This document shows, one piece after another, positions 2,117 to 43,486 of a stretch of 64,000 nt of DNA (position 1 is its first letter; each line of letters begins with the position of its first letter). The notes below the pieces were generated by a model. It made no database searches. It was not told the DNA's origin and worked only from the letters and a program-made list of their open reading frames with translations. The DNA is taken from NCBI GenBank assembly GCA_963696765.1, contig CAVOLK010000005.1, positions 252,851-316,850 on the forward strand, in the 5' to 3' direction. A program made the translations under genes and the position numbers. This DNA comes from an uncultured Acidobacteriota bacterium. GTDB lineage: Bacteria; Acidobacteriota; Terriglobia; Terriglobales; Acidobacteriaceae.

Positions 2117-2136
2117 GCAGCGAGTCGAAGATTGAA

Positions 2137-2179
2137 GCCGCCAGCCTGAAGAACCTGTCAGGCTGGCGGTTTTGTTTTT
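2137..2179 (+). terminator. Intrinsic terminator after pilQ
   Basis: GCCGCCAGCC-N14-GGCTGGCGG hairpin followed by TTTTGTTTTT, about 20 nt after the pilQ stop. Confidence 0.75.
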
Positions 2180-2197
2180 AATGCGAGTGGTTAAATC

Positions 2198-2358
2198 TGA
2201 GTTCTCAGTTCTCGGTTCTCAGTTCTCAGTTCTCAGTTAAGGCGCGCGGTTGTGTAATCTGATCTGTATCGAATGAGCCTTTAACGCCTGGTAGGAACGT
2301 GACAACTGCTCTTGCCTCTTCTGAGAACTGAGAACTGAGAACTGAGAACTGAGAACTG
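2198..2358. repeat. Inverted tandem-heptamer arrays (GTTCTCA)n ... (TGAGAAC)n with an 82-nt spacer
   Basis: About 5.5 copies of GTTCTCA at 2198-2238 and about 5.5 copies of the reverse complement TGAGAAC at 2321-2358. The arms are complementary over ~38 nt with one mismatch. The right arm ends 15 nt before the pepP-like ATG. Confidence 0.9.
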
Positions 2359-4074: not shown

Positions 4075-4084
4075 GTGTGCTCCA

Positions 4085-4196
4085 TTGTTGATTGTTGATT
4101 TTTGATTGCCGATTGGAAAACGCCCCGTGTTGTCACTCCCAATCAGGGATCGGCGTTTCAATCAACAATCATCAATCAACAATCAACAATTTTTTT
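4085..4196 (+). terminator. ~40-bp imperfect hairpin built from inverted heptamer arrays (ATTGTTG / CAATCAA) followed by T7; terminator- or attenuator-like, between accB and accC
   Basis: Left arm attgttgattgttgatttttgattgccgattggaaaacgcc. The reverse complement of the right arm is attgttgattgttgattgatgattgttgattgaaacgcc. Loop ~26 nt, then ttttttt at 4190-4196. Confidence 0.7.
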
Positions 4197-4218
4197 GAGA
4201 GCCGAAAACTGAGACTGC

Positions 4219-5574
4219 ATGTTCAAGAAAATCCTGGTAGCCAATCGTGGGGAGATCGCACTGCGCGTGATTTGCGCGTGCAAGGAACTGGGCATTCGCA
4301 CGGTCGCGATTTACAGCGAGGCCGACCGCAACTCGTTGCCTGTGCGCTTTGCCGATGAGGCCATTTGCATTGGGCCGCCGCAGCTTGCGCTCAGCTACCT
4401 GAATATTCCCGCAGTCATCAGCGCGGCAGAAATCGCCAACGTGGAAGCGGTGCATCCCGGCTACGGATTGCTCGCGGAAAATGCCAACTTCGCCGAAGTC
4501 TGCGAGACCTGCGGCATTAAGTTCATTGGCCCGCGCCCGGAAGTGACGCGCCTGATGGGCGAGAAAGAAAAAGCCCGTGCCGCCATGAAGCGGGCGGGAG
4601 TGCCCATCCTGCCCGGCTCCGACGGCATCATCGCTTCGGACGGCGAGGCGGTCGAGTGGGCGCGGCAGGTCGGCTTCCCGGTCATCGTGAAAGCTTCGGC
4701 AGGCGGCGGCGGGCGCGGCATGCGCATCGTGCGCAACGAAGAAGAACTGCCCGGCTTGTTCAGGGCGGCGCAGGCCGAGGCTGCGGGCGCTTTCGGCAAC
4801 GGCGATCTCTACATGGAAAAATATGTCGAGCATCCCCGCCACATCGAATTTCAGGTGCTGGCCGATGAGCATGGCAACGTCGTCAGCCTGGGCGAGCGCG
4901 AATGTTCCATCCAGCGCCGTCACCAGAAGTTGCTGGAAGAATCGCCTTCCACGCAGGTCACGCCCGAATTGCGCGATCAGATTGGCGCGGTGCTGTGCAA
5001 GTCGCTGGCCGCGATCGGCTACAGCAACGCCGGTACCATTGAATTTCTGATGGACCAGGATCGCAAGCTTCATTTCATCGAAATGAATACTCGCATTCAG
5101 GTGGAGCATCCCGTCACGGAAATGGTGACCGACGTCGACCTGGTGAAGAGCCAGATCATGATCGCCGCCGGCGCGAAGATGAGCGACGTGCTGCAGGGGC
5201 CGATCATCCATCGCGGGCATGCCATCGAATGCCGCATCAACGCCGAGCATCCGGAGAAATTTACGCCATCGGCAGGGAAGATCACGGCCTTCAATCCTCC
5301 CGGAGGCACAGGGGTGCGCGTCGACACGGCGGCTTACGCCGAGGGCGTGATTCCGCCCTATTACGACTCGCTGATTGCCAAGCTGATTGTGCGCGGCAAA
5401 GACCGCGCCGAGGCCGTTTCGCGCATGTCGCGCGCGCTGGAAATGTTTATCGTCGAGGGCATCTACACTACGATTCCGCTGCACCGGAAGATTCTCGCCG
5501 ACGAAGATTTCCGGGCAGGGAAGATCGATACCGGATTCATCGAGCGCTTCCTGAAGAAAAACAGTCACACGTAG
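4219..5574 (+). CDS. accC: Acetyl-CoA carboxylase biotin carboxylase subunit
   Basis: 451-aa intact ORF: [42 protein letters not shown]; directly downstream of accB. Confidence 0.95.
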
Positions 5575-5694
5575 CGGCGGACGCATTCGTCCGCCGTGGG
5601 ATGGAGAAGGCCGGAGCACTCTTCGGATCCTCCAGCTTTGCGGTTTGTACATGACCTACTAGTTCTGGAAAATTCTCCGGACGAATGCGTCCGG
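5575..5694. repeat. Small palindromic repeat element with paired terminal hairpins
   Basis: Hairpin CGGCGGACG-catt-CGTCCGCCG (5575-5596) and hairpin CCGGACG-aatg-CGTCCGG (5677-5694). The cores are reverse complements of each other and bracket ~80 nt between accC and thiE. Confidence 0.6.
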
Positions 5695-5707
5695 GGCTAC
5701 GTGATTT

Positions 5708-6520: not shown

Positions 6521-6627
6521 GACCAATGACTAGCGACGTAAGGACGTAACGACCGACGACGAACGACGAACGACGAACGACCAACGACCAACGACGTAAC
6601 GACCGAGGACCAACGACGAACGATCGA
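6521..6627. repeat. Tandem heptamer array (ACGACGA / ACGACCA units, ~15 copies)
   Basis: gaccgacgacgaacgacgaacgacgaacgaccaacgaccaacgacgtaacgacc...; single orientation, immediately upstream of the first permease gene. Confidence 0.85.
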
Positions 6628-6712
6628 ACCCGGAGGCTTCCTGAGTACATCGACCACGCGACCGCCCGCCAGCAGCGACTGGGACATCCACAGTCATCAG
6701 GACAAGGAACTG

Positions 6713-9746: not shown

Positions 9747-9782
9747 CGGCCCTCCGCACGGCGCGGAGGGCCGTTTTGTTTT
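9747..9782 (+). terminator. Intrinsic terminator after the second permease
   Basis: CGGCCCTCCGC-acgg-GCGGAGGGCCG followed by TTTTGTTTT. Confidence 0.8.
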
Positions 9783-9787
9783 AACAT

Positions 9788-9883
9788 CGGTCGTGGAATG
9801 ATCGTTGGTCAATAGCCGTTGGTCGTTGGCCAAGCACCGCAAATTTAAACGCTACAACGACCAACGACCAACGACGAACGACC
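9788..9883. repeat. Inverted heptamer arrays (TTGGTCG-type / CGACCAA-type)
   Basis: Left arm cggtcgtggaatgatcgttggtcaatagccgttggtcgttggcc (9788-9831); right arm acaacgaccaacgaccaacgacgaacgacc (9854-9883). Same unit as the array at 6521-6627. Confidence 0.8.
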
Positions 9884-11523: not shown

Positions 11524-11686
11524 TGTCGTGGAAGAGCGGCCCTTCAGGGCCGCGTCGGGTACGTTTATCGATCGGGCTTTAGCCCCGGTGAACTCTTCGG
11601 GCGAAATGGTGAAAGGCGACCACCGGGGCTAAAGCCCTCGGCGTATCCAAGGCCTAACGCGGCCCTGAAGGGCCGCTCTTCCACAG
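11524..11686. repeat. MITE-like palindromic repeat, family 2
   Basis: Terminal inverted repeats tgtcgtggaagagcggcccttcagggccgcg ... cgcggccctgaagggccgctcttccaca, with inner gggctttagccccgg / ccggggctaaagccc. Degenerate relatives at 32655-32765 and 34187-34327. Confidence 0.75.
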
Positions 11687-17514: not shown

Positions 17515-17601
17515 TTTCGCCCCTTTCGGGGCTTGGCTTTTTCGAACTCCTATCCCACGCCTTACGGCGTGGGCTGCATTCTTTCGCCGCTTCGCGGCTG
17601 A
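17515..17601. repeat. Small hairpin-rich dispersed repeat, family 3
   Basis: gcccctttcggggc and cccacgccttacggcgtggg hairpins followed by ttcgccgcttcgcggctga. It explains the pseudo-ORF text PTPYGVGCILSPLRG. Confidence 0.5.
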
Positions 17602-17995: not shown

Positions 17996-18028
17996 TCTGA
18001 GAACTGAGAACTGAGAACTGGGAACTGC
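17996..18028. repeat. Tandem heptamer array (TGAGAAC x4), same unit as 2321-2358
   Basis: tctgagaactgagaactgagaactgggaactg, ending 3 nt from the fabI stop; no inverted partner seen nearby. Confidence 0.85.
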
Positions 18029-29105: not shown

Positions 29106-30554
29106 ATGCCCTCCGCTCTCTATAGTGGGCTCGAAATGGATTTGCAGTTCAGCTTGCGCGGGCCTGCGAACTCCCATTTCAGGAAAACTAAGGTCTCGGG
29201 TAGGGATTTCACGATTCCTTCCGGGAATCGTTCCGCGCAAAGTAGGGACATGAGCAGTGCCGCCGAGTTCGCAAGGATCCAGCAAGATTCAGATCCGGAA
29301 TCTTGTTCTGTTTTTGATTACTCACCCTTTCCCGTGGCGCAATGCCAGCGCCACGGGAACATAATTGCGTTCAATTCCGCTTTGGAACAGATGCTTGGGG
29401 ACAGGGTCAGAACGTCTCCGCCCCTGTATTTTGCCGATCTCATTTGTCCTCAGGATTGCGTCGAAGGGCAGCGGCTGTTTCAAGATTTGTTTGACGGCCG
29501 GCAGGACAGTTTTCAGATTAATTCCCACATTGGCAGCGCAGGTGGTCGCCCGGTGCGTTGGACTCTTTGGCGTGTGCAGGGGATGAATGGAAATTCCGAC
29601 TACGCGCTGGCCGTGGCCGAGGATGCTCCGCACGACCGTGAAGCCGAGCAACGCCTGCGGCAAGCCGAGAAGTTGGAGGCTGTGGGCCGCTTGGCGGGAG
29701 GAGTGGCTCACGACTTCAACAATCTGCTCACCGGAATTCTCTTGTACTGCGACCTGCTGAAGACCCACCTGGAGCCTTGCCATCGAGTGCGAAAGTATGC
29801 CGATGAAATCCGCGATGCCAGCATGCAGGCTGCCGGCCTGGTGCGCCAGTTGCTCGCCGTCGCGCGACCCTCGAATTCCGAGCCGCGCTTGCTTTCCCTG
29901 AACGAGGTTGTCGAAGGCATGCGCAACCTTCTGGGTCGCCTGATCGGGGAGAACATCAACCTGCATTTCCGGCTCGATCCCAATGTTGGCTTGATCAGGA
30001 TGGATCCGACGCAGGCGCAACAGATTTTGCTGAACCTGGTGCTGAACTCGAGGGATGCGATGCCCGGCGGCGGCGATATCACGGTTGAAACGTGCCAGTG
30101 CAAAGTGCAAGTACTGCTGGAATCAGGCCGGCCGGAAAGTTCGACTGAATCAGATAGGGAGGAAGCAAGTCGCGCGATCGCGATTCCAACTTCGCTGCCC
30201 TGCGCTCTGTTCGTAGTGGCGGACAACGGCAGCGGGATGGATGACGCCACACGCAAGCGCGTGTTCGACGCATTTTTCACGACCAAGGCAGGGAAGGGCA
30301 CGGGCCTTGGACTAGCCACGGTGCACGACATTGTCACCAGCAACGGCGGCCTCATTCACGTCGACAGCGCGCCCGCACGGGGCACGCGCGTCTCCGTGCT
30401 GCTGCCGCTGGTTCCCCCGCCACTGGTGGAATTGCACAGTAGCCGCGAAGCTCTGACCGAAACGAATCTGACCGAAACGAACGTGATCGAAACGAACGTG
30501 ATCGAAACGAACCTGATCGAAACGAAGCTGAAAGTGCTTTTACCGAAAGCATAG
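29106..30554 (+). CDS. Cytoplasmic PAS sensor histidine kinase
   Basis: PAS-like N-terminus, H-box GVAHDFNNLLTGI, HATPase (DNGSGMD, GKGTGLGLA); no TM segment. The start is uncertain (29106, 29136 or 29250 MSSAAEF). The C-terminal tail is encoded by a 15-bp tandem repeat. Confidence 0.85.
   Translation: MPSALYSGLEMDLQFSLRGPANSHFRKTKVSGRDFTIPSGNRSAQSRDMSSAAEFARIQQDSDPESCSVFDYSPFPVAQCQRHGNIIAFNSALEQMLGDRVRTSPPLYFADLICPQDCVEGQRLFQDLFDGRQDSFQINSHIGSAGGRPVRWTLWRVQGMNGNSDYALAVAEDAPHDREAEQRLRQAEKLEAVGRLAGGVAHDFNNLLTGILLYCDLLKTHLEPCHRVRKYADEIRDASMQAAGLVRQLLAVARPSNSEPRLLSLNEVVEGMRNLLGRLIGENINLHFRLDPNVGLIRMDPTQAQQILLNLVLNSRDAMPGGGDITVETCQCKVQVLLESGRPESSTESDREEASRAIAIPTSLPCALFVVADNGSGMDDATRKRVFDAFFTTKAGKGTGLGLATVHDIVTSNGGLIHVDSAPARGTRVSVLLPLVPPPLVELHSSREALTETNLTETNVIETNVIETNLIETKLKVLLPKA
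30453..30533 (+). repeat. Five tandem 15-bp repeats read in frame as the kinase C-terminal tail
   Basis: [cg]tga[ct]cgaaacgaa[tcg] x5 giving LTETNLTETNVIETNVIETNLIETKL, located at the kinase/regulator gene junction. Confidence 0.85.
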
Positions 30555-34337: not shown

Positions 34338-34410
34338 GGCGCGCAAGCCCCGGGTCGCGCAAGCGCGGGTCGCGCAAGCCCGGGCCGCGCAAGTTCGGGC
34401 CGCGCGCAAG
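34338..34410. repeat. Five tandem 15-bp repeats (GGG[CT]CGCGCAAG[CT]NC)
   Basis: gggcgcgcaagcccc gggtcgcgcaagcgc gggtcgcgcaagccc gggccgcgcaagttc gggccgcgcgcaag. Confidence 0.85.
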
Positions 34411-38504: not shown

Positions 38505-38575
38505 AATTGATGATTGTTGATTTGTGATTGTTAATTGAAAAACTCTCGAGGCGCGACAGCAATCAGCAATTACCA
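38505..38575. repeat. Inverted heptamer arrays (GATTGTT-type / CAATCAG-type), weak right arm
   Basis: aattgatgattgttgatttgtgattgttaattg ... gcaatcagcaattacca, between the VWA stop (38615) and the rhomboid start (38429). Unit related to the array at 4085-4190. Confidence 0.6.
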
Positions 38576-38614
38576 CTCAGTATTCAAAAATCTGAACTCT
38601 GCAATCTAAAATCG

Positions 38615-39850: not shown

Positions 39851-39856
39851 GAAAAC

Positions 39857-39979
39857 AGCTTTCAGCTATCAGCTATTAGCTTTCAGTTAAGACGTTCTTG
39901 CCAAGTTCACGTTGTGGCGCCGGAGATCTGATCTAGTTCTGACTTGCTGACAGCTGACGAGCTGATAGCTGACAGCTAA

Positions 39980-43123: not shown

Positions 43124-43126
43124 AAA

Positions 43127-43486
43127 GGTTTCAAGGTTGCAGAGTTTCGAGGTTTCAAGGCCTCGAGGTTTCAAGGACTCTGCTGACTAGACACTCTAAG
43201 ACTGTGAAACCTGAAACCCTGAAACTTGGTATTGGGGTCAGTTTGAATTATGAATGTCACAGGGCGTCATCCCGAAGAGCCCGCGTTTTTACCAGCGGGC
43301 CGAGGGATCTCCCGTGGCACACAGTGTCGTAGCGGGAGATCCTTCGCTCCGCCGGAAGAACGGCTACGCTCAGGATGACGCCATCGACGAGCGAACATGC
43401 CATCAGAATTTCACACTGGCCCACGACCTCAAACCGTGGAACCTTGAAACTTTGCAACGTTGCAACCTTGCAACCTTGAAATCTTG
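43127..43486. repeat. Inverted short-period arrays (GGTTTCAAGG-type / CCTTGAAAC-type) whose spacer holds the composite MITE copy 43228-43428
   Basis: Left arm 43127-43176; short inverse block tgtgaaacctgaaaccctgaaactt at 43203-43227; right arm 43437-43486. The structure fills the convergent gap between the SDR stop and the TPR stop. Confidence 0.8.

Follow-up and report, generated by a model that had tools for sequence, protein, structure and literature searches.

Heptanucleotides are the most over-represented of the longer simple sequence repeats (Mrazek 2007, as quoted in passages of PMC4679880 and PMC4692102), and in several bacteria they form short tandem arrays between genes. The analysis presented here concerns arrays of this kind in an uncultured bacterium of the family Acidobacteriaceae (Acidobacteriota; assembly GCA_963696765.1), and in particular a hairpin of two inverted heptamer arrays at positions 2196–2358 of a 64,000-nt stretch of its genome (contig CAVOLK010000005.1, here C5, C5:252851–316850; hereafter the window), which stands between the genes of a secretin (pilQ) and an M24 peptidase (pepP) and is called here the focal hairpin. 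A preliminary description of the window, made from the sequence alone, knew of no described family with this layout. The layout is in fact already described in other bacteria, paired arrays having been published for Xanthomonas (PMC4692102) and Geobacter metallireducens (PMC2700814), and it is found here in a new phylum and with many families. In the literature searched, no account was found of these arrays in Acidobacteria, nor of a link between heptamer arrays and genes of the S23p family.

In Xanthomonas, the repeat GGGAATC/(GGGANTN)n is present as 70–75 inverted pairs per genome and most repeats are transcribed, while no function was found for them (Rehm et al. 2015, PMC4692102). The acidobacterial arrays resemble these repeats in being tandem heptamers with a mode of about four units and with conserved and degenerate unit positions, and also in that sister species have the same gaps occupied by arrays of differing lengths and sequences. 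The Xanthomonas repeats are 89–93% intergenic, lie near the end of the upstream open reading frame (ORF) and form about 40% convergent inverted pairs able to fold into stem-loops; their contexts are co-directional in about 65–70%, convergent in 16% and divergent in 7–8%, to be compared with 69%, 21% and 10% here. Unlike Xanthomonas, which has one G-rich unit with G-quadruplex potential, this genome carries 10–15 AT-rich families, 8-mers among them, and no G3 run occurs in any of the main unit families. Therefore, quadruplexes are not the common denominator of the class; G-tracts are a property of the Xanthomonas and Nostoc units and do not belong to the layout.

Several families per genome, arranged mostly as opposite-strand pairs at variable distance, have also been reported for G. 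metallireducens, where passages of Aklujkar et al. 2009 (PMC2700814) distinguish three classes of paired tandem-repeat sites (four tandem 8-mers GTTGCTYN, three repeats of about 8–9 nt TCTCCGTS[Y], and five heptamers MTYCTGA) and read them as putative binding sites of global regulators. The MTYCTGA unit is close to the ATTCTGA/AATCTGA family found here. Those passages contain no analysis of abutment to gene boundaries, polarity or enclosed genes, which are features described below. Direct repeats of TAACTGA occur in marine Beggiatoaceae, cyanobacteria and Bacteroidetes, and binding of ribosomal protein S1, cold-shock proteins (Csp) or CsrA has been proposed for them (MacGregor 2015, PMC4679880). 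They are likewise intergenic tandem heptamers of 2–6 copies, whose A-rich strand ends just before start codons that often have no Shine–Dalgarno sequence, and TAACTGA is one base away from GAACTGA, the commonest unit here. However, TAACTGA genomes have about one unit each and only one inverted set in 170, whereas inverted pairs dominate in this genome, where arrays are found after stop codons as well. A Nostoc preprint describes several types of heptamer close to start codons, whose effects on reporters are modest.

A further point of comparison is the intervening sequence (IVS) of 23S rRNA. The IVS of Coxiella burnetii has a 28-bp terminal stem with an S23p ORF inside, and RNase III removes it from the transcript; the same study recalls an old proposal that IVSs are mobile (Warrier et al. 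2016, PMC4990558). Five cassettes of the same build as the ORF-bearing IVSs of Leptospira and Coxiella are present in this genome. Unlike IVSs, which sit in helix 25 or 45 of 23S rRNA, the copies examined, with rRNA operons not included, lie between protein-coding genes. Moreover, IVSs are proven RNase III substrates, whereas most copies here are ORF-less and their processing is a prediction.

Census, anatomy and placement of the array modules

The focal hairpin belongs to a population of short-period array modules that runs through the whole lineage. Established here are their census, anatomy and polarity, their contact with stop and start codons, the replacement of units at orthologous gaps and the association with S23p genes. 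Tandem Repeats Finder (TRF) was run on the whole assembly (5.16 Mb, 58% GC, five contigs, 85% complete) and gave 475 period-7 and 235 period-8 rows, which merge into about 450 arrays of at least three copies, 348 of them with period 7 and 103 with period 8. On a crude map of longest-ORF gene calls, which divides the genome into 80% coding and 20% intergenic DNA, 81% of the period-7 and 74% of the period-8 arrays are intergenic. Intergenic DNA holds 292 arrays of at least three copies for period 7 and 78 for period 8, against 3–8 and 2–6 in Markov-1 shuffles, and the enrichment for periods 5, 6 and 9–11 is mild or nil. The GC content of the units is 0.43, compared with 0.58 for the genome. The main units, counted as TRF rows, are AACTGAG (52), AACAATC (38), AACGACC (22), AAGCTAG (20) and the 8-mer AAACCTTG (37), together with several AGCTNNN and AATCTGN types. 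Where neighbouring arrays share a unit, 89 pairs are inverted and 6 direct, and a 100-kb region of ribosomal-protein and tuf genes alone holds 45 arrays.

The recurrent architecture that the preliminary description had seen in the window is thus genome-wide, and every locus that it listed is present. Its period of seven applies to most of them, the arrays at 43.1–43.5 kb having period 8, and at 38.5 kb the right of its two paired arms is largely decayed. Its heading of a different unit at different loci does not hold strictly, since the units recur as about 10–15 families in this genome with 10–60 arrays each. An assembly artefact, which that description had named as a possible refutation, is excluded, because the arrays are also carried by independent assemblies, namely short-read soil metagenome contigs, where they break contigs, and dozens of related metagenome-assembled genomes (MAGs) from other projects. 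A search against Rfam gave no family at gathering score for the arrays, and the long stems drew only sub-threshold and spurious matches to miRNA precursors.

The array module is of narrow size, with a median of 4.4 units or about 31 nt (interquartile range 4.0–4.7 units for paired and 3.9–4.9 for single arrays). Each unit consists of a 6-nt core, the positions of which are mostly about 85–100% conserved, and one degenerate position, or two in some families, as in AGCTGA-N, AGCTAG-N, CAATCA-N, C-N-AACGA and TTGAAAC-N; in the GAACTGA family, the variation is chiefly made of transitions at unit positions 3, 5 and 7. Where the same unit stands at both edges of a gap, a stem of 29–44 bp results, with a mismatch every 7–8 bp, and stems average 29 bp with 85% of positions paired. 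Core positions are mostly paired in about 85–100% of cases and the main degenerate position in 27–59%, which is about chance; therefore, the stems are series of 6–7-bp helices with periodic interruptions. The arms of the focal hairpin, placed by an inverted-repeat finder at 2200–2243 and 2314–2357 (44 nt each, 91% complementary), make a stem of 38–44 bp, and the predicted RNA fold of 2185–2375 reaches −93.3 kcal/mol against −53.7 ± 4.1 for dinucleotide shuffles (z = −9.8), in agreement with the long stem first described.

The arms are ordered as well as complementary. On either strand, the 5' arm has the T/G-rich form (L) and the 3' arm the A/C-rich form (R), and this order is fixed in every family (15/15, 11/11, 10/11, 7/7, 5/5 and so on). 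As a cause of this polarity, arrays with stop codons in all frames were considered and rejected from the unit sequences, since five families agree with the idea, CAATCAN shows the reverse and two others are neutral. The outer ends of the arrays fall at a preferred phase of the unit, for example after CAAT, GAACT(G) or AACGAC, and copies at separate loci have a common order of variant units, such as AAATCAN as the third unit in the CAATCAN family and a "G" unit in CCAACGA arms. Loops measure 0–484 nt with a median of 28 and are unique, only 2 trivial matches being found among 71 of them. A convincing target-site duplication was not found; short flank matches are slightly in excess (for k = 5, 13 against 6 expected), plausibly on account of palindromic AGCT ends within the ±4-nt tolerance of the boundaries. 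A run of at least three T follows the 3' arm in 39–44% of copies, compared with 9% of random intergenic sites, and A-runs are enriched before 5' arms. The focal copy has no T-run.

The modules are in close contact with genes, as the preliminary description had noted. The distance on the stop side has a median of 6 nt, with 63 of 99 boundaries within 0–10 nt, and that on the start side a median of 23 nt. Of 89 elements, 35 cover their gap to at least 80%. The contexts of the hairpins are co-directional in 59 cases, convergent in 18 and divergent in 9 (86 non-overlapping), plus three overlapping, where the gaps of the genome are distributed as 2521, 778 and 788. Divergent gaps are therefore depleted about two-fold (10% of hairpins vs 19% of all gaps), and there is no enrichment in convergent gaps (21% vs 19%). 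At least nine convergent gene pairs have only the hairpin between their stop codons. Single arrays obey the same polarity. Within 20 nt of a boundary, 52 lie after a stop codon with T-rich sense and 36 before a start codon with A-rich sense, against 5 and 3 of the opposite orientation; singles that have no remnant of a partner within 300 nt show 35 and 27 in the common orientation and 5 and 3 in the opposite one (62 vs 8). The start-side count may be inflated by longest-ORF gene calls, which cannot affect the stop-side count. The longest perfect array, (AGTTCTC)15 at C2:3007717–3007822, is among the few of T-rich form that precede a start; it ends at an AGGAGG Shine–Dalgarno sequence and a start codon and is a candidate for copy-number variation.

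Other adjacent pairs, with divergent or different units or with the same unit otherwise arranged, comprise 17 L-R, 13 R-R, 3 R-L and 1 L-L. In a chimeric junction at C2:3080254–3080413, an 8-mer arm of the GGTTTCAA type follows the stop codon and an AGCTAGA-type arm precedes the next start; these two arms are not complementary, and GC-rich palindromes resembling repetitive extragenic palindromic (REP) sequences lie in between. Genes next to hairpins have a codon bias of 0.217 compared with an average of 0.174 (p = 5e-13) in a comparison set that includes spurious ORFs. Shine–Dalgarno sequences are found in 26% of cases vs 10% in a control window, but the start-codon calls are too crude for this figure to be used.

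Coordinates of the array features of the window and of the terminator that precedes the focal hairpin (L-form, T/G-rich; R-form, A/C-rich)
Feature	Position	Strand	Units and arms	Context
Intrinsic terminator of the secretin gene	2133–2174	+	Canonical, GC-rich	Kept in relatives; upstream of the focal hairpin
Focal 5' arm	2196–2238		GTTCTCA (TRF unit TCTCAGT), period 7, x6.1, 91% matches; T/G-rich L-form, GAACTGA family	82 nt before the 3' arm; found by TRF, inverted repeat and fold
Focal loop	2239–2320		82 nt, unique	Segment ATCGAATGAGCC also in the orthologous hairpin of relative L002
Focal 3' arm	2321–2358		(CTGAGAA) x5.4, period 7, 100% matches; A-rich R-form	1 nt upstream of conserved −10-like TAGACT; 15 nt from arm end to the M24 peptidase ATG (2374)
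accB–accC junction hairpin	4084–4197	+	ATTGTTG-type arm 4084–4115, loop, CAATCAA-type arm 4159–4190, T7; by inverted-repeat finder 4084–4118 / 4156–4190, 35-nt arms, 86% complementary	Between accB and accC
Long single array	6534–6629		(CGACGAA/CGACCAA) x13, R-form, CCAACGA family	Upstream of the first amino-acid permease gene (6713)
GTCGTTG/CCAACGA-family hairpin	9802–9883		Left arm degenerate; 9802–9828 / 9855–9881, 27-nt arms, 81% complementary	Downstream of canonical terminator 9747–9773; 12 nt between the end of the right arm and the YjeF-family ATG (9896)
Single array	17997–18027	− (sense)	(CTGAGAA) x4.4; T-rich L-form on the sense strand	3 nt past the enoyl-ACP reductase stop
ATTGTTG-type arm and decayed inverse arm	38506–38592		38506–38537 and ~38562–38592	
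CAGCTNT/AGCTGAN-family hairpin	39856–39977		39856–39886 / 39946–39977	Between two co-directional minus-strand genes; whole junction taken up (stop, 2 nt, arms, 5 nt, start)
Period-8 hairpin, AAGGTTTC / GAAACCTT family	43125–43486		43125–43176 / 43432–43486; 255-nt loop	Takes up a convergent gap; 1 nt and 2 nt separate it from the two stops

The genes that flank these features are ordinary housekeeping genes, which code for the secretin, the M24 peptidase, the biotin carboxyl carrier protein BCCP, biotin carboxylase, two amino-acid permeases, a YjeF-family protein and enoyl-ACP reductase. The focal hairpin is not the terminator of the secretin gene, because a canonical terminator precedes it. 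A motif CTGATAAACTC / CTGCTACACTC, with a −10-like TAnnnT, occupies positions 2359–2373 and the same spot in more than 50 related loci; it lies 8–10 nt upstream of the pepP ATG in nearly all relatives, and the 3' arm always ends just before it. The conservation of this motif so near the ATG suggests a leaderless or very-short-leader mRNA. Arrays as phased −35 elements before this pepP −10 box were considered and rejected, since TTGACA is matched, by eye, at only 2–4 of 6 positions and a consensus scan found no promoter there.

Other repeats and an RNA element accompany the arrays in the window. The 255-nt loop of the period-8 hairpin is itself another, multi-copy repeat with 62 genomic matches. 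The 830-nt convergent gap that carries the (CTGAGAA)4.4 array at its end also holds a match to Acido-Lenti-1 RNA (RF01687) at 17554–17599 on the plus strand, with 52.2 bits against a gathering score of 37. GC-rich REP-like inverted repeats are found at 11528–11555 / 11657–11684 (28 nt, 100%) and 5568–5593 / 5678–5703 (26 nt, 92%), and the four Y1_Tnp genes of the genome (IS200/RAYT-like; C2:1229355, 2281110, 555208 and 3218278) may belong with repeats of this sort. Arrays with a 15-bp period at 30453–30531 (5.3 copies) and 34340–34405 (4.3 copies) are unrelated and outside the 7/8-nt class.

S23p genes in the loops and turnover of units among relatives

The genome was searched for PF05635 (23S_rRNA_IVP, S23p), a family of small four-helix-bundle proteins known first from rRNA intervening sequences, and all five hits above the cut-off, counted here as strong, sit in loops of long-loop array hairpins. 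The five cassettes have five different units (AGTACCG, GGTCTTG/GGTGTTG, the 8-mer GTTTCAAG, GTCGTTG and TAGCTAT) and fill gaps in the same way as ORF-less copies. Their proteins measure 121–130 aa, one copy having an uncertain N-terminus. Four of the proteins are intact, encoded at C2:2765067–2765432, C2:1867808–1868200, C2:3096523–3096894 and, as a 122-aa ORF, around C2:2016669–2016983. The focal hairpin and all other copies of the window are ORF-less, the five cassettes with an S23p gene in the loop lying elsewhere in the genome. Among solved structures, that of XCC0516 of Xanthomonas campestris (2GSC, E = 1.7e-25, five chains) is the nearest, followed by 2RLD, also with five chains; according to published work, proteins of this type are homopentameric toroids of four-helix bundles related to Avd of diversity-generating retroelements. 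In X. campestris, the S23p homologue XCC0516 is overlapped at its start by GGGAATC repeat no. 15, which is 6 nt away from bccP (Rehm 2015 supplement, PMC4692102). The accB-adjacent junction thus recurs as a host site, with a GGGAATC array at XCC0516–XCC0517 of Xcc and an ORF-less hairpin at 4084–4197 of the window.

The association extends to other genomes. Of the 80 nearest S23p loci, 51 have TRF-detected inverted arrays on both sides and 14 more have inverted repeats, mostly heptamer-periodic; at 12 an array is present on a single side, and at 3 there is none of these. The loci outside the Acidobacteriota come from Planctomycetota, Chloroflexota, Bacteroidota, Clostridia, Proteobacteria and others. 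The upstream arms are G/T-rich, which is the polarity of the ORF-less hairpins, and AGT is found in 24 of 50 (about 5 expected), while the units vary by locus. The unit co-varies with the protein: it is shared by 77% of pairs at or above 70% protein identity, by 28% at 60–70%, by 7% at 50–60% and by 2% at 40–50% (Spearman −0.16, with 1 of 2000 permutations as low). Versions of the focal AGTTCTC family that bear an S23p gene are found in three relatives (L124, L125 and L132).

Orthologous gaps were followed through 80 pepP loci of related MAGs, the nearest ones, which place this genome in the Terriglobia close to 'Ca. Sulfotelmatobacter'. Both the pilQ–pepP and the accB–accC gap very often carry arrays, and these belong to differing families, with GAGAACT, AGTACCN or GAGCNAT types in the former and ATTGTTG, GAGCTNN, the 8-mer ATTTGGTA or single AGCTGAN arrays in the latter. 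In one relative (L001:2325–2838), about 700 nt of extra sequence separate the pilQ terminator from a 13-copy CTGAGAA array and match domains of group II introns (RF02001, 79 bits; RF01998, 54 bits), so that an ORF-less group II intron or a fragment of one occupies the place of the 5' arm and loop of the window. The relative G158, from the same genus and with 76% nucleotide identity, is syntenic over the tuf/ribosomal-protein region, where at least six orthologous gaps have arrays in both genomes and five of them have different units (for example TAGCTNN/AGCTGNC, the 8-mer GGTTTCAA/GTCGTTN, and GGTTTCAA x2/GTAATTNN). At C2:3087014–3087168, two tandem and near-identical 8-mer hairpins fill an operon junction that holds a single GTAATTNN-type hairpin in G158. 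The geometry is therefore kept while the sequence turns over, as the preliminary description had supposed from different loci of one genome.

Family abundance is specific to the species. With at most one mismatch, (GAACTGA)3 has 60 matches here, 69 in G158 and none in G179 of the same genus, and between 0 and 6 in each of the other 298 Acidobacteriota genomes sampled. Per Mb of sampled DNA, there are about 87 arrays in this genome, 295 in G158 and 40 in G179; a genome of 8.8 Mb from the same class has 10. Fourteen species (13 besides this one) have orthologous copies of the ATTGTTG hairpin at the accB–accC junction, and pairwise identity across its 5' arm averages 0.89, compared with 0.906 for positions 1+2 and 0.54 for position 3 of the accC codons. 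Its copy number is constant, its loop is unalignable and the T6–7 run is kept in most of the 14 species. The stem has a single compensatory change that affects both sides (T:A in 7 species, A:T in 4) and recurrent mismatches at three positions, two of which are the degenerate position of the unit. Judged by this alignment, the accB–accC copy is under purifying constraint.

Possible origin and role of the hairpins

The best explanation of these observations, which we hold tentatively and at slightly less than even confidence, is that the gene-less hairpins are the ORF-less form of the type of element to which the ORF-bearing 23S rRNA IVSs belong. Transcribed at operon junctions and in 3' regions, they would form long stems and, by analogy with IVSs, are probably substrates of RNase III, the processing of which would separate or insulate the neighbouring cistrons. 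Copies with a U-tract behind the hairpin (about 40%) could also cause termination or attenuation, as is likely between accB and accC. Some copies may have been domesticated, that of accB–accC for example, and others would be neutral passengers.

Several results weigh against this explanation. The homologue sample is biased, since it consists of the 80 nearest loci only, 40 from Acidobacteriota and 40 from other phyla. The most abundant families, GAACTGA and CAATCAN, have no S23p copy in the 85%-complete assembly, and in eight relatives the number of S23p genes does not track array density (3 genes at 295 arrays per Mb in G158, 7 at 40 in G179). Because their loops are unique, the elements cannot spread whole as transposable elements of the miniature inverted-repeat type (MITEs) or REP doublets (REPINs) do. 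Arm-to-arm compensatory evolution is absent genome-wide, since an arm matches its own partner no better than a non-partner (0.84 vs 0.83; 0.865 vs 0.874), and the wobble bias expected of RNA is weak (84 G.U vs 62 A.C on the sense strand, p = 0.08). A search for RNA-seq and metatranscriptome data found no RNA runs with the sequence. Moreover, the window hairpins at 2198 and 9802 stand just past canonical GC-rich terminators, with the next gene shortly after them, and these copies, in promoter/leader regions, may not be co-transcribed as whole hairpins.

The lack of arm-to-arm compensation indicates that the cores may be read as sequence by a protein and not as a helix, and this is the basis of a possible, though somewhat unlikely, alternative that is partly compatible with the IVS-like account: the modules would be arrays of binding sites for a trans-acting protein, with the hairpin as a by-product of opposed arrays. 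Candidate binders are pentameric S23p, OB-fold RNA binders (ribosomal protein S1, cold-shock proteins) or, as in the Geobacter proposal, a global regulator; the published proposals are S1, Csp or CsrA for TAACTGA (PMC4679880) and global regulators for Geobacter (PMC2700814). Since the cores would be read as sequence, this alternative best explains that the free position is paired at about chance although the 6-nt cores are mostly 85–100% conserved in each arm regardless of pairing, that singles are as long and as conserved as paired arrays (core identity 0.89 vs 0.90, p = 0.6, so that doublets are not better conserved), and that arms fit the consensus of their family rather than their own partner. 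In addition, 4.4–4.7 units hold five sub-core copies, which equals the five chains of 2GSC and 2RLD, and the S23p protein clades co-vary with the unit. However, 10–15 families would need as many specificities where 5–6 S23p genes are present, the two largest families have no cognate S23p gene here, and in relatives the number of S23p genes bears no simple relation to the density of arrays. Same-unit pairs also outnumber L-R pairs of divergent or mixed units by 89 to 17, far above a random choice of family, from which it follows that pairing itself matters. An unlikely extension would make the hairpins and the S23p pentamers a single genetic system, with clade-specific heptamers, five units per arm for five subunits, and ORF-less satellites. 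The gene with its arms would be the autonomous form and the hundreds of ORF-less hairpins its satellites, the arms of about 31 nt would act as recognition sites or portable homology arms, and loop contents, including the gene, would be exchanged between junctions and rRNA helices.

The same data bear on accounts without such a protein. The slippage within stems with compensatory expansion that the preliminary description had proposed is not supported, to judge by the equal match of partners and non-partners, by the chance pairing of the variable position, by the equality of singles with paired arrays and by lengths that stay within an interquartile range of 4.0–4.7 units rather than drifting. 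Functionless microsatellites that grow in place, by a slippage that favours 7-nt units (Mrazek's proposal), with template switching as the source of inverted pairs, are distinctly unlikely: long perfect arrays do exist ((AGTTCTC)15 at C2:3007717, a 15.9-copy ATTCTGA array and 13 copies in L001), units and lengths differ at the same gap between related species, abundance is as species-specific as 60 and 69 against 0 within one genus, and an excess of heptamers is known in many bacteria, but the length distribution is narrow, the variation is concentrated at one unit position instead of being evenly spread, variant-unit order and terminal phase are common to copies at separate loci, and the accB–accC arm keeps an identity of 0.89 against 0.54 at synonymous sites with a constant copy number. 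Strict polarity (62 vs 8 true singles) and the use of the same dozen units at up to 60 loci, in place of a random unit at each, also speak against it. Intrinsic and often bidirectional terminators or attenuators with unusually long AT-rich stems, a very unlikely general explanation, would agree with the excess of T-runs after 3' arms and of A-runs before many 5' arms, with the nine or more convergent pairs separated by the hairpin alone and with the T6–7 run kept at accB–accC; over half of the copies, however, have no T-run, the canonical terminators of this genome are short GC-rich stems, two of which lie just before window hairpins, convergent gaps are not enriched, and the 7-nt period, the unit families and the enclosed S23p genes are left unexplained. 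Hardly credible, and largely refuted, are MITEs or REPINs moved by a transposase or a REP-associated tyrosine transposase (RAYT) encoded elsewhere in the genome. As with REP/REPIN sequences (Bertels and Rainey 2011, PMC3116915), there are hundreds of short extragenic repeats, inverted doublets and several families, here with inverted termini, a defined end phase and a tandem duplicate at C2:3087014–3087168. The palindromic core, the cognate flanking RAYT, the related spacers and the greater decay of singlets that characterize REPs (PMC3116915) are not found: loops are unique, the small target-duplication signal plausibly comes from palindromic ends, singlets are no more decayed than doublets, and none of the four PF01797 (Y1_Tnp) genes is directly flanked by arrays. 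The earlier view that these are not ordinary REP or MITE copies is thereby upheld.

The excess of tandem heptamers has been known since 2007 and has been described case by case (the cyanobacterial STRR, where the layout is also in print, GGGAATC, TAACTGA, Geobacter) without a function or a mechanism. With a dozen unrelated AT-rich units in one shared geometry, this genome serves as a test bed that excludes ideas specific to one unit, such as G-quadruplexes, and isolates the common rules: a module of about 31 nt, a 6-nt core with a free unpaired position, a fixed arm order, contact with stop and start codons, and the re-occupation of gaps. The S23p genes in hairpin loops tie these repeats to the equally unexplained rRNA intervening sequences, and through this link to the S23p/IVS cassette an old puzzle becomes accessible to experiment. 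If the hairpins process or insulate transcripts of the accBC and ribosomal-protein operons, they would constitute a widespread post-transcriptional layer in soil Acidobacteria. If S23p and the heptamers form one system, a protein partner and a mechanism of spreading would be at hand for the heptamers of Xanthomonas, cyanobacteria, Geobacter, Beggiatoaceae and Acidobacteria.

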